Shown: positions 22,767-64,000 of the stretch, piece by piece
How positions within the stretch are numbered: the stretch's first letter is position 1
How the letters are laid out: every line of letters starts with the position of its first letter
From: Gammaproteobacteria bacterium
GTDB taxonomy: Bacteria; Pseudomonadota; Gammaproteobacteria; Magnimaribacterales; AG-339-G14
Assembly: GCA_045564455.1 (NCBI GenBank)
Contig: JBJLHG010000001.1
Location: 11,754 to 75,753, forward strand
Direction: 5' to 3'
Length of the DNA stretch: 64,000 nt
Notes under the pieces: generated by a model
What the model was told of the DNA's origin: nothing
Database searches by the model: none
What the model saw: only the letters and a program-made list of their open reading frames with translations
Position numbers and translations under genes: made by a program

Positions 22767-24047
22767 ATGACATGGTTAGATTCCTTTAGGAGTTATTTTC
22801 AACCAAGAGTTCTTTTAATCGCTGCTTTGGGCTTCTTATCTGGATTGCCTTTAGGTCTTCTTATAGACCCTCTAAACTACTGGTTAGCAGAAGCTGGTAT
22901 CAATAAATCTACAATCGGCCTTTTATCTCTAGTTTTATTAGCTTATTCGATAAAAATGGTATGGGCTCCTTTAGTTGATAGATTGAGAATTCCTTATCTT
23001 AAATTTTTAGGGCAAAGAAAAAGTTGGCTTTTTCTATCACAGCTTCTAAGTTTTATAACTATTTTAGGTTTGAGTTTCTTGGACCCCCTAACAAATCTAG
23101 AGCTTTTTGTATTTGTTGTTCTTTTATTAAGTATTTTTTCAGCTACTCAAGACATATGTGTAGATGCGTTAAGAATTGAGTTAGTTGACGAGAAAGAAAT
23201 AGGAGAAGCTTCAGCTCTTTATATAATTGGCTATAGAATAGGTGCTATTTTACTATCTCAAGTTTTGACGTTCTATATCGCTGAATCTTACGGATGGAAT
23301 GTAGCATACGGAGTCATGGCTTTCTTGTTTTTTCTTTTTTCTTTAATAATCTTATATGTTCTTCCTGAACCTGAACGAGAAATAAGACCCTATATTTCAC
23401 TATTTGAAAAACCAATATTATGGTTTCAAGATTCATTTATTTCTCCTGTTTCTGATCTTTTTTATAGATACAAAGAGCATCTTGTAATTATTCTTCTATT
23501 GACCTTTACATATCGCTTAAGCGATATGTTTTTAGGACCTATGGCAATGCCTTTCTATCAAGATATGGGTTTTTCAAAAATAGAAGTTGCTGAAATAACT
23601 AATTTTTATGGTTTATGGATGACAATTATTGGTGGATTATTTGCCGGCTTAACTCTTCATAGATTTGGTCTGGTTAAAAATATGGTCTTTGGCGCAATAT
23701 TCGTCCCATTGGCCAATATGCCTTTTATCTATTTAAATTCTGTAGGGCACGATATTAGTGTTCTAGTTCTTACAATAACTATAGATAATTTTTCTCAAGG
23801 TTTTATAGGCGTAGTTGGTATCACTTTTTTATCTAGAATGGTTTCAAAAACCTACACTGCAACACAATATGCTTTACTTTTTGGGTTTGTGGCTATTCCT
23901 CCGCGTTTAATATCTGGATATTCAGGGTTTGTTGTTGAGGATTATGGATACCATAATTTTTTCATAATTTGTGCATTATTAGGTCTCCCGGCAATTATCT
24001 TTTCCATAATGGTTTATAGAAAAAAGGAAATATTTAGTTTTGATTAA
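22767..24047 (+). CDS. ampG: Muropeptide permease AmpG (MFS)
   Basis: 426 aa MFS protein with the WAPLVDR motif. Adjacent to ampD. Confidence 0.8.
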   Translation: MTWLDSFRSYFQPRVLLIAALGFLSGLPLGLLIDPLNYWLAEAGINKSTIGLLSLVLLAYSIKMVWAPLVDRLRIPYLKFLGQRKSWLFLSQLLSFITILGLSFLDPLTNLELFVFVVLLLSIFSATQDICVDALRIELVDEKEIGEASALYIIGYRIGAILLSQVLTFYIAESYGWNVAYGVMAFLFFLFSLIILYVLPEPEREIRPYISLFEKPILWFQDSFISPVSDLFYRYKEHLVIILLLTFTYRLSDMFLGPMAMPFYQDMGFSKIEVAEITNFYGLWMTIIGGLFAGLTLHRFGLVKNMVFGAIFVPLANMPFIYLNSVGHDISVLVLTITIDNFSQGFIGVVGITFLSRMVSKTYTATQYALLFGFVAIPPRLISGYSGFVVEDYGYHNFFIICALLGLPAIIFSIMVYRKKEIFSFD

Positions 24048-24387
24048 AAAAATAGAATTTTTTAATATTTGGGGTTTTCTTTTTTTATTAGCTTTTTCTA
24101 TAAGCACATATGGTCTCTTTTCAGAGCCTCAAGAAGAACGATTCATAAATCTACCAGACAAAATTACGCACTTTATAATGTTTTTAATCCTATCTTTTTT
24201 CTTAATAAAATCTAATAAATATGTTGAGTTTTCATTATTTTTTATAATTTTTTACGCAATTTTATCTGAAATAATTCAATACTACTTGCCTTATAGAGAA
24301 TTTGATTTAATTGATTTATGTTTCAATTTCTTAGGAATAGGAGTTATTTTTTATAAAATTTTTTTTAGGAAACCTCTTGAAAAATAA
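24040..24387 (+). CDS. Small membrane protein, possibly VanZ-like
   Basis: 115 aa with 4 hydrophobic segments and a TTG start overlapping the ampG stop. Weak family guess. Confidence 0.35.
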   Translation: MIKKIEFFNIWGFLFLLAFSISTYGLFSEPQEERFINLPDKITHFIMFLILSFFLIKSNKYVEFSLFFIIFYAILSEIIQYYLPYREFDLIDLCFNFLGIGVIFYKIFFRKPLEK

Positions 24388-28586: not shown

Positions 28587-28964
28587 ATGGTAACAATAAG
28601 ACTTTCAAGAGGAGGAGCAAAAAAACGTCCCTTCTATCATATTACTGTCACTGATTCGAGAAAACCCCGTGATGGAAGGTTTATTGAAAGAGTTGGTTTT
28701 TTTAATCCTTTAGCTCAAGGAAATGATGTCAGATTAAAAGTAGATCATGAAAGAGTTAATTATTGGGTTGGAACAGGAGCTTCCTTAAGCGAAAGAGTAG
28801 AGTCACTAATCAAAGAATCAAAATTAACCCCAGAAGAGATAAAAAAAAGTTTAGATAAGAAAGAACAATTAAGGCTAAAAAAATTAGCAAAGAAAAAAGA
28901 AGCTGTAGCCGAAGAAGCTGCACCTGAAGCAGCCGAAGCTCCAGCCGAAGAAGCTCCAGCCTGA
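28587..28964 (+). CDS. rpsP: 30S ribosomal protein S16 with Ala/Glu/Pro-rich C-terminal tail (ORF as encoded; see repeat and +1 extension)
   Basis: [41 protein letters not shown] is canonical S16. The ORF ends at TGA 28962-28964 inside a tandem repeat. Confidence 0.9.
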
Positions 28965-29118
28965 AGCAGCCGCACCTCCAGCCGCCGAAGCTCCAGCCGA
29001 AGAAGCTGCACCTGAAGCAGCCGAAGCTCCAGCCGAAGAAGCTCCAGCCGAAGAAGCTGCACCTGAAGCAGCCGAAGCTCCAGCGGAAGAAGCTCCAGCC
29101 GAAGAAGCTGCACCTGAA
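28911..29118 (+). repeat. GC-rich 51-nt tandem repeat encoding [17 protein letters not shown]
   Basis: Identical copies at 28911-28961 and 28999-29049, a 1-nt variant at 29050-29100, a partial copy from 29101, and an irregular 37-nt unit at 28962-28998. Confidence 0.9.
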
Positions 29119-29163
29119 AGTGAATCAGAAGACTCTCAGGAAAAAACAGATAAATAAGAGTTT

Positions 29164-29667
29164 ATGTTTAACCAAGATGACAAATTCATTTTGGTCGCAT
29201 CTATTGGAAAACCGATAGGTTTGAAAGGCGTTGCAAAAATTAATTCTTTCACAAGACCCCCAGAAAATCTTTTTTCATATAAACGCTTTTATATAGACAC
29301 TAATGGTGAGAAAGAAGAAATCTCTGTCAGCAAATTTTCTAAATCTGGAAAAAACTCAACTATAAAAATTTCTAATGTTAATTCGATAGAGGAAATTGAA
29401 ATTTATAAAAATAAAGATATTTTTATTGAATCTTCAGAATTACCATCTCTAGAAGAAAATGAGTTTTACTGGAAAGATTTAATTGGTAAAAAAGTAAAAA
29501 ACTCTAATGACCTTTTTATCGGTGTTGTTACAGAAATTATAGAAACTGGCTCAAATGATGTTTTAGTTGTAACTAAAGATAAAAAAACTGAATTAGTTCC
29601 TTTTATTTTTGATGAAGTTATAAAAAAAGTTGATGACATATTTATAACAGTAGATTGGGAATTTTAA
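29164..29667 (+). CDS. rimM: Ribosome maturation factor RimM
   Basis: 167 aa (IGKPIGLKGVAKINSFT...; PRC-barrel-like C-terminus). Operon position agrees. Confidence 0.85.
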   Translation: MFNQDDKFILVASIGKPIGLKGVAKINSFTRPPENLFSYKRFYIDTNGEKEEISVSKFSKSGKNSTIKISNVNSIEEIEIYKNKDIFIESSELPSLEENEFYWKDLIGKKVKNSNDLFIGVVTEIIETGSNDVLVVTKDKKTELVPFIFDEVIKKVDDIFITVDWEF

Positions 29668-36288: not shown

Positions 36289-37387
36289 ATGAATGATTCT
36301 TCCATTATTGATAGATTAAAAGATTCAAAAAATGAATTAGAGGATCTTCGGAGGTATCTTTGACTTAGATTCTAAACAATCAAGACTAGAAGAACTGCAT
36401 AAAGAATTTGAGAATCCAGATGTCTGGAAAAACCAATCTTTGAGCCAGTCATTAGGGAAAGAGAAATCCTCTTTAGAGAAAATAACCAATCAATTTTCTT
36501 TATTAGATTCTTCAATATCTGATTTAGAAGAACTTTTTGAAATGATTTCTAACGACAATGATGATTCTATTCAAGAACAAATATCAAATGAGTTAGATTC
36601 AATTCAGGAAGAATTATCCAATCTTCAATTTAATAGAATGTTTTCGGGTGAAACAGATGAAAATAATGCTTTTTTAGATATTCAATCTGGTTCAGGAGGA
36701 ACCGAAGCTCAGGATTGGGCTGAAATGTTATTAAGAATGTACTTGATGTGGGGAGAAAGAAAAAAATTTAAAACAGAAATTATTGAAGTATCGCCTGGAG
36801 AAGTTGCTGGAGTAAAAAGCGCAACAATTAAATTTGAAGGAGATTTTTGTTTTGGATGGCTTAGAACAGAAACTGGTGTTCATCGTTTAGTAAGAAAATC
36901 TCCTTTTGATTCTGGAAGTAGAAGACATACATCTTTTGCTTCAATTTTTGTCTCTCCAGAAATTGATGACAATATAGATATTGAGTTAAATTCTGCAGAT
37001 ATAAGAATAGATACTTATCGAGCTAGTGGAGCAGGAGGACAACATGTTAATAAAACTGATTCAGCAGTCAGATTAACTCATGAGCCTTCAGGTGTAGTCG
37101 TTCAGTGCCAGACTCAAAGATCTCAACACAAGAATAAAGATAAAGCGATGAAGCAACTTAGAGCAAAGCTTTATGAATTAGAATTAAAAAAACAAGATGA
37201 TGCAATGAAAGATTTAGAAGACTCTAAAGCTGATATAGGATGGGGGAGTCAAATAAGATCTTATGTGTTAGATTCTGCAAGAATTAAAGATTTAAGAACC
37301 GGAATAGAGACTTCTAATTGTTCAGATATTTTAGATGGAAATTTAGATGTATTTATTGAAGAAAGCCTTAAAATGGGAATTAAATGA
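36289..37387 (+). CDS. prfB: Peptide chain release factor 2, requires programmed +1 frameshift at 36361
   Basis: ORF0 ATG 36289...CTT TGA (36358-36363). The +1 frame continues [12 protein letters not shown]... into the track ORF 36440..37387. SPF (RKSPFDS) and GGQ ([10 protein letters not shown]) motifs are present. Confidence 0.9.
36350..36364 (+). other. RF2 autoregulatory +1 frameshift site
   Basis: GGAGG TAT CTT TGA C. E. coli has AGGGGG TAT CTT TGA C. An internal SD-like element lies 3 nt before the CTT slippery codon, followed by a UGA-C stop. Confidence 0.85.
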
Positions 37388-55098: not shown

Positions 55099-55130
55099 TT
55101 AATATATAAAATTATTGCTCTTAAGTTATT

Positions 55131-55189
55131 GATTTTTAATTAATAAAAAAAATCAAGATTTTTATTCTTTTTATAAGATTATTTTTAAC
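55131..55189. repeat. Three AT-rich 13-mer-like repeats
   Basis: GATTTTTAATTAA (55131), GATTTTTATTCTT (55157) and GATTATTTTTAAC (55177). These loosely resemble the E. coli DUE 13-mer GATCTnTTnTTTT. Confidence 0.3.
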
Positions 55190-55419
55190 TAAAAAAATTT
55201 TTTTTTATTCTAATTCTTGAATTATTTTCTCAAGTTACACACAACACTTACCTCATAAACAATTAACTGAATATCCATTGCATAAAAATTATGTATATCG
55301 ATGCAGTTTTCTATATTTTTTTAAATTATTGATTTTATTGGCTTTTTTTAATTGATCAAAAATTGATCAATTTAAGTAAAGCCTTTTTGTTTAAAAGGGT
55401 TTCAGATTGTCAAAAATTT

Positions 55420-55454
55420 TTATCCAAAGACTTATCCACAGATTCTGTGGATAA
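55420..55454. promoter_or_regulatory. Cluster of three DnaA boxes (two perfect, inverted; one 8/9)
   Basis: TTATCCAAA (55420-55428), TTATCCACA (55432-55440) and TGTGGATAA (55446-55454), against consensus TTATCCACA. A further TTACACACA lies at 55235-55243. Confidence 0.5.
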
Positions 55455-55481
55455 AAAAAACTGCTTTGGTAGGATATAAAT

Positions 55482-63361: not shown

Positions 63362-64000
63362 TTGAAAAAAAATTTGGTTTTGTTTCGATAAGCGGAAGAA
63401 CTAATGTGGGAAAATCTACACTTATCAACTCTTTGCTTGGAAAAAAAATAGCAATAACCTCAAGAAAACCACAAACAACTAGAAATAGAATTTTAGGTAT
63501 TCTTACAAACAAAGATTCTCAAGTAGTCTTGTTAGATACTCCTGGTTTTCATACCGGATATAAAAGAGCTTTGAATAAATACATGAATAAATTAGCTGCT
63601 CAATGTTATGAAGAGGTTGACCTGATTGTATTTGTTGTCGATAGATATAAATGGTTGCAAGAAGAAAAAAACACTTTAAAAAGATTAAAAGAAATTAATA
63701 AGCCAATTATTTTAGCTATTAACAAAATTGATAGATTAGAAAATAAAAATGATTTATTACCAATAATGAAAGAAATACAGAAAAAACATGATTTTTCAGC
63801 AGTTATTCCTATTTCAGCTTTAAGAAAAAGCAATTTAGAAGATCTGCTAGTGGCAATAAAAAAAGATCTGCTGACAGAGCCATTTCATTTTCCTGAAGAT
63901 TCAGTTACTGAGTTTTCTGAAAATTTTTTTATTTCTGAAATCATTAGAGAAAAAGCTATAAATCGTCTCGGGGACGAACTTCCTTACAGATTGAATGTAG
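63358..64000 (+). CDS. era: GTPase Era, N-terminal part (3' end outside window; absent from the ORF track because no stop is reached)
   Basis: My translation from ATG 63358 reads [45 protein letters not shown]...[8 protein letters not shown]. ATGA overlap with rnc. Confidence 0.9.
   Translation, partial: [214 protein letters not shown]

Follow-up and report, generated by a model that had tools for sequence, protein, structure and literature searches.

The rpsP gene of the window, the 64,000-nt stretch of DNA analysed here, stops at a TGA inside a GC-rich tandem array. Comparison with relatives indicates that this repeat normally encodes the tail of ribosomal protein bS16 in one frame, and that the break is a sporadic lesion. 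The lesion is local and unique to this window, and the array in which it lies is a systematic assembly breakpoint. We infer from these comparisons that the break originated in silico and is probably an assembly or consensus artefact.

The rpsP locus and its interrupted reading frame

As written, rpsP encodes 125 residues, and an exact look-up of this product returned no record. The product carries the Ribosomal_S16 domain PF00886 at residues 8–68 (89.8 bits against a cut-off of 27; Pfam), with a core that is 96–99% identical to S16 of relatives. The features of the locus are as follows:

28587–28964, + strand: rpsP (bS16) ORF as written, 125 aa, stop TGA 28962–28964 (ORF list; Pfam PF00886)
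28587–28823, + strand: S16 core fold, residues 1–79, pLDDT 83–92 in the model of the relative P0002; outside the lesion
28830–28910, + strand: basic helical linker, approximately residues 82–108, a predicted helix; outside the lesion
28897–29118, + strand: GC-rich tandem array for the Glu/Ala/Pro tail, its 51-nt unit composed of 15-, 21- and 15-nt sub-repeats (TRF and dissection)
28956–28986, + strand: lesion, one net extra base plus four to five clustered base changes, which makes the TGA at 28962–28964
28963–29157, + strand: continuation of the S16 tail in the +1 frame, from GAA 28963 through 64 codons to TAA 29155–29157; aligns with the in-frame tails of L081, L082 and L083
29116–29157, + strand: terminal peptide ESESEDSQEKTDK and TAA, out of frame with the rpsP start as written
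29164–29667, + strand: rimM (Pfam PF01782 and PF24986), its ATG 6 nt past the +1-frame TAA

Linker residues K87, K92, K98, L100 and K103 are invariant across 33 relatives. Three ORFs that carry PF01782/PF24986, PF01746 and PF01245 (Pfam) follow rpsP on the same strand, giving the order rpsP-rimM-trmD-rplS, and the gene order in relatives is identical. If the TGA were the true end of rpsP, 199 nt would separate it from rimM. The usual gene spacing in the window is 0–20 nt, and this gap is one of only seven longer than 120 nt in a sequence that is 96% coding, which bears out the original prediction that it is out of character.

Read from GAA 28963, the +1 frame closes with ...APESESEDSQEKTDK at TAA 29155–29157, leaving a 6-nt spacer to the rimM ATG at 29164. 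Its final 13 residues are the exact C terminus of P0003, an intact S16 of the closest relatives, and hence the frame is not open by chance. Independent translation of the +1 segment was ruled out, since the ORF list of the window holds no + strand ORF with an ATG, GTG or TTG start across it. On re-reading the sequence, the positions first assigned to the rpsP stop, the 51-nt array and the +1 frame all held.

A local lesion in the tandem array

TRF describes the array as 4.3 copies of a 51-nt period with 90% matches. Exact copies of the unit, GAAGAAGCTGCACCTGAAGCAGCCGAAGCTCCAGCCGAAGAAGCTCCAGCC, lie at 28911–28961 and 28999–29049; a third copy at 29050–29100 matches at 50 of 51 positions and is followed by a partial unit at 29101–29115. 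The GC content of the array rises to 62% because of its Glu/Ala/Pro codons, compared with 33% for the window, and the contrast originally drawn between a GC-rich array and an AT-rich background is thereby confirmed. Between the two exact copies lies an irregular 37-nt unit (28962–28998). Describing it as 14 nt shorter than a full unit, as the original prediction did, is valid but is only one way of doing so, as removal of T 28962 alone also mends the frame and leaves a 36-nt unit.

Across the lesion (28940–29000) the window reads ...GCTCCAGCCTGAAGCAGCCGCACCTCC..., with CCAGCCTGAAGCAGCCGCACCTCC as the junction string. Comparison with L187 and L188, two loci of a near-identical population described below, identifies the extra base as T 28962 or, equivalently, as a change of GCACC to CCAGCC. 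Against the L188 allele one base is inserted and five are changed, all between 28956 and 28986. The extra base is outside any homopolymer. All 15-mers starting at 28948–28983 are absent from the near-identical population, and the remainder of the array consists only of k-mers shared with it. The irregular unit is in none of the sequences from the closest relatives or the 99.9% identical population. Its 29-nt core had 0 matches in JGI metagenome contigs, the 29-nt segment occurs in none of 83 related loci and its sub-motifs in none of a larger, later locus set.

With the flank divergence as the rate, a stretch of 26 nt should hold 0.004 differences, and the probability of at least five is ~5e-15. 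The lesion is therefore one complex event or an artefact, and not a series of independent point mutations. The irregular unit is pieced together, as a mosaic, from hexamers of the array itself (GAAGCAGCC, GCACCT, CCAGCC, GCC and GAAGCTCCAGCC) in a non-canonical order, and in the +1 frame it still encodes a sensible Glu/Ala/Pro peptide.

The S16 tail in relatives

The conceptually joined S16 of the window served as query, and the best 120 of thousands of S16 proteins were examined. In 114 of these 120 closest proteins a single frame encodes an S16 core, a basic stretch, a Glu/Ala/Pro repeat and a short acidic/basic terminal peptide. The 114 proteins are 131–225 aa long (median ~170), with tails that are 35% Ala, 35% Glu and 14% Pro; their terminal peptides take forms such as ...SEDSQEKTDK, ...TEDSEKKEDK and ...ESDKKDDK. 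A one-frame tail is the norm in this SAR86 lineage, and the retention of the terminal peptide in 114 of 120 relatives indicates selection. A member of a sister cluster is labelled SAR86 cluster bacterium. The original prediction had offered an assembly or sequencing indel as one option, to be preferred if relatives showed a single uninterrupted frame, and this is what the 114 of 120 show. No relative ends S16 at the same TGA with a decaying region downstream, the pattern that had been expected of a dead remnant.

The six exceptions comprise two contig-end cuts, two adapter ends, one chimeric end of a contig and one protein whose frame breaks at another point of the tail. The tails of P0027 and P0069, S16 homologues on ENA contigs, finish in VSYTHLTLPT... 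and LSLIHISEPTRH, which we take to be translated Illumina transposase-adapter sequence; adapter was thus left untrimmed where these contigs end inside the array. The S16 array of P0076 (L196:1001–1544) gives way to GC-rich sequence that is unrelated (...AGAAAGR*); this contig end is probably chimeric. The frame break is that of L195 (L195:1001–1910; JGI 3300046171, Ga0494230_0706, a 138-kb contig), which belongs to a more distant SAR86 relative. Its array is ~600 nt long and one G is missing from the S16 tail (GAGGCA to GAGCA), placing the stop 360 nt before rimM. The S16 called there (P0046) ends in ...EEHQPKKL and another frame runs on to ...ESDKKEDK. At L160:1974–2470, an apparent 491-nt gap after S16 is a product of the ORF-calling rule: a RimM-like frame is open directly after S16, and the rimM start is probably a codon other than ATG, GTG or TTG, or one that the ORF rule skipped.

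L081, a 59-kb MAG contig that is 96% identical to the window over 20 kb, encodes an intact 167-aa S16 ending 6 nt before rimM, and S16 totals 131–167 aa among relatives ~96% identical to the window. Among the matches listed, a search of genome contigs for S16 gave only distant Gammaproteobacteria with 59–77% identity in the core. A search of metagenome contigs with the S16 core gave mostly more distant relatives, with in-frame tails and with contigs that run off inside the array. In the AlphaFold2 model of P0002 (96% identical), residues 1–79 have pLDDT values of 83–92, a helix spans residues 82–108 and the chain is structureless from residue 108 (pLDDT ~40). The TGA of the window, at codon 126, would therefore lie in the part predicted to be disordered.

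The array in a near-identical population

Exact look-ups of RimM, L19 and GroEL led to a widely sampled, nearly clonal population with flanks 99.9% identical to the window. Relative to L187/L188, the window has two SNPs in the 14.1 kb upstream of the array and one in the 7.4 kb downstream, a total of three SNPs and no indels in ~21.5 kb. A 124-kb contig of this population (L177/L187), 99.9% identical on both flanks, spans the array and encodes an intact S16 of 172 aa, which leaves a spacer of 6 nt to rimM. L082, a short contig with flanks 99.8–100% identical, encodes an intact 138-aa S16. S16 length differs in every assembly, being 138 and 172 aa in the 99.9% population and ~189 aa for the frame-repaired window. 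Tail lengths were compared between the window (28897–29118), L081, L082, L083, L165, L166 and L177. The variation may in part be true hypervariability and in part repeat collapse by short-read assemblers.

We counted breakpoints on contigs of the near-identical population that carry an identical RimM, L19 or GroEL. Twelve distinct contigs, up to 94 kb long, start inside the array, three end inside it and two scaffolds bridge it with 100 N. Gap-free passage is seen in only two contigs, which are both in frame and differ in length there; the array is thus left uncrossed by 17 of the 19 population contigs or scaffolds that reach it. Independent assemblies of this population fail or disagree here, as is expected of a repeat artefact. 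The pattern recurs in more distant relatives, where the sequence runs out within the tail at six loci and no more than 60 nt past it at several others. Contig L194 stops precisely at the left side of the window junction (...GAAGAAGCTCCAGCC), and the starts of L169 and L178 (AAGCAGCC...) lie 2 nt right of T 28962; these ends are suggestive of a join between two contig ends.

Accuracy of the remaining window

No gene other than rpsP is broken in the 64 kb, which has a coding density of 96%, and the window has no private indel relative to the 99.9% population in 21.5 kb. Compared with L081 (96% identical), it has five 1-nt indels outside the array, four of them intergenic and one in the last codons of a VanZ-like gene (24040–24387). 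Here a 1-nt difference in a T-run (24340–24387) alters the last ~8 codons, the C terminus being ...IFYKIFFRKPLEK in the window and ...FFLLNLLKNKK in L081. The product is also 115 aa in L187 and L188, and the indel, being common to the 99.9% population, reflects a real difference between lineages, not an error; this C terminus is poorly conserved. Three other long gaps, at 55099–55481, 379–578 and 63362–63605 (200–383 nt), contain no ORF of at least 70 aa and no Rfam match. Inspection of the longest of these (55099–55481, 383 nt) for small genes or RNAs gave nothing notable, its only ORFs being 25–38 aa.

The accuracy of the window, together with the position of the extra base outside homopolymers, makes a generic base-calling error unlikely. 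Two candidates are left by this clean sequence, a repeat-specific mis-assembly and a real rearrangement.

Alternative explanations of the frame break

A programmed +1 frameshift at GCC-UGA-A, with the ribosome skipping the U and resuming at GAA to complete full-length S16, would be prfB- or antizyme-like and might couple synthesis of the S16 tail to release-factor activity. The 0-frame UGA is indeed followed by a long open +1 frame that encodes the conserved tail and stops at the usual spacing from rimM, and the prfB site shares this layout of a 0-frame UGA preceding a long +1 ORF for the rest of the protein. The prfB gene of the window itself (RF2; 36289–37387), 7 kb downstream of the rpsP lesion, serves as a positive control and reads CGGAGG-TAT-CTT-TGA-C with the TGA at 36361–36363; its product after the +1 shift is 365 aa, and plain ORF calling reports a 315-aa ORF after a 154-nt 'gap'. 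Shifting at prfB depends on the slippery CUU-U, on a poor UGA-C stop context and on an upstream SD-like element at a distance of 3 nt, and the site is conserved across bacteria, whereas the rpsP site has none of these three features and is not conserved. GCC cannot re-pair in the +1 frame, since by codon–anticodon rules CCU mismatches the tRNA-Ala anticodon at the first position, and the stop context is UGA-A instead of the inefficient UGA-C. The best anti-SD duplex within the 24 nt upstream reaches -1.1 kcal/mol compared with -10.9 kcal/mol at prfB, in agreement with the earlier remark that no SD-like stimulator precedes the site. A programmed site should be conserved, but a single frame is found in 114 of 120 homologues and in relatives 96–99.9% identical, which argues that GCC-UGA-A is not such a site. 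Moreover, the other broken tail, that of L195, carries a 1-nt deletion, opposite in sign and at another site; two breaks of this kind point to sporadic errors or mutations. Yeast Ty3 (GCG-AGU-U) and antizyme (UCC-UGA-U) shift +1 at a non-slippery codon before a slow or stop codon, Ty3 without P-site slippage, and by analogy with Ty3 an Ala codon before a slow codon would not be formally impossible for a +1 shift. Those sites are eukaryotic and have stimulators of their own (a downstream element; polyamines and a pseudoknot), whereas the rpsP site is bacterial and lacks conservation. The recoding option of the original prediction thus falls on conservation, on the slippery codon, on the anti-SD duplex and on L195, and we consider programmed shifting here very improbable. 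Equally hard to credit is a variant in which the extra base is real and a low-efficiency +1 (or equivalent -2) shift past the UGA yields mostly tail-less and a little full-length S16. Our literature search found nothing specific on rpsP frameshifting or on low-complexity S16 tails.

Phase variation, in which repeat slippage would switch the S16 tail between on and off states within a population, was also part of the original prediction. The array does vary in length among near-identical genomes (138 and 172 aa, and ~189 aa in the repaired window, with 131–167 aa at 96% identity), and in this it resembles contingency loci, which are likewise length-polymorphic coding tandem repeats. However, the repeat periods of 15, 21, 36 and 51 nt are all divisible by 3, which means that the frame survives when units are gained or lost. 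Part of the length variation may be short-read repeat collapse. All length variants among relatives are in frame, no on/off population was seen, no out-of-frame allele occurs elsewhere in the assemblies of the 99.9% population, and the 37-nt unit is not obtainable by simple slippage. A contingency switch is accordingly most unlikely, and of the original option that combined it with a one-off mutation only the latter half still fits. The idea that the TGA is not a stop, through an alternative code, read-through or selenocysteine, has its sole support in the location of the TGA inside the array. Beyond it frame 0 reads SSRTSSRRSSSRRSCT*, Ser/Arg-rich, with three more TGA codons and unlike the tail of any relative; TGA ends 12 of the 55 long ORFs in the window; and prfB, whose product RF2 reads UGA, is present with its UGA-dependent autoregulatory site. 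On frame-0 sequence, TGA usage and prfB we reject this explanation, the probability of which is negligible.

A real and recent frameshift, specific to a strain or cell and produced by complex rearrangement within the array, is possible but doubtful. It would cut S16 to 125 aa, with loss of 64 tail residues and the terminal peptide, and would leave the core and basic helix intact and rimM with its start. The remainder of the window is accurate, the extra base lies outside homopolymers and the new k-mers must come from somewhere; a de Bruijn assembler invents no new k-mers, and hence a pure short-read assembly requires the junction to be present in some reads. The mosaic of array hexamers, with its Glu/Ala/Pro coding in +1, is what out-of-register recombination could leave, and the downstream frame is free of decay, which fits a very recent event. 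Such a truncation may also be tolerable, as the lost part is predicted to be disordered (pLDDT ~40) and intact relatives are as short as 131 aa. Against it, the lesion is unique in a widely sampled 99.9% population and has no match in JGI metagenome contigs, and 114 of 120 relatives retain the terminal peptide. The prior for a rare real frameshift within these ~220 nt is also far below that for an assembly error, given that 17 of 19 population contigs or scaffolds fail to cross the array. The same observations bear on an artefact from the other side: the accuracy of the window and the position of the extra base count against it, and a sensible +1 Glu/Ala/Pro peptide is also expected of a real intra-array rearrangement. 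An artefact is nevertheless favoured because the junction is unique, clustered, out of register and situated at a point of near-universal assembly failure, and because the frame is kept in 114 of 120 relatives.

Discussion

An artefact in the rpsP array would account for the locus as follows. In this SAR86 lineage, bS16 is encoded in one frame as a core of ~80 aa, a basic helix, a disordered Glu/Ala/Pro tail of variable length and a short conserved acidic/basic terminal peptide, with rpsP closing 6 nt before rimM. In the window this frame is broken by a small complex lesion within ~30 nt of the array, most likely through an error that arose when assembly was carried over a tandem repeat too long for short reads; mis-joining of two contig ends, gap closure and an unpolished consensus are candidate steps. 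The organism would then make a full-length S16 of ~170–190 aa without recoding. The array shares with known cases of short-read repeat mis-assembly the stops and starts of contigs, N gaps, adapter and chimeric ends and differences in copy number. Classical repeat collapse changes copy number in register, whereas the window junction is out of register and has new k-mers; it therefore calls for a step of joining, gap filling or consensus building, or for a real rearrangement.

C-terminal extensions of bS16 are known from other bacteria. That of Cutibacterium acnes is 65 aa long and contacts uS4 (PMC10085706), and Porphyromonas gingivalis and other Bacteroidota have extensions of ~100 aa (PMC12123416); the ordered part contacts uS4 and 16S rRNA, and the distal part is flexible and lacks density (PMC10085706, PMC12123416). 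The tail described here, too, begins beyond the ~80-aa core, with a predicted helix at residues 82–108 followed by a tail that is disordered in the model. It has the marks of a lineage-specific bS16 extension, reaching beyond ~80 aa (131–225 aa in relatives), being conserved in the lineage and having a flexible distal part. Unlike in Cutibacterium and Bacteroidota, the distal part is encoded by a DNA tandem repeat, is rich in Glu/Ala/Pro, is of variable length among near-identical genomes and has a conserved acidic/basic peptide at its end, and the likeness is one of architecture.

The main value of the result lies in quality control: annotation of the gene as written would present an essential ribosomal protein as truncated or pseudogenised, and a claim of recoding would be wrong. 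The ~200-nt array is a recurrent breakpoint of metagenome assembly in an abundant clade and limits contiguity there; once covered by long reads, it could serve as a strain marker. If an unprogrammed low-efficiency shift did occur, it would be a case of ribosomal-protein recoding newly arisen, before selection had removed or fixed it, and such a strain would be a natural experiment on the purpose of the SAR86 S16 tail. If the truncation is real, the distal tail would be dispensable, at least in the short term. For SAR86 and related marine Gammaproteobacteria, the Glu/Ala/Pro repeat tail adds a variant to the known extensions of bS16.
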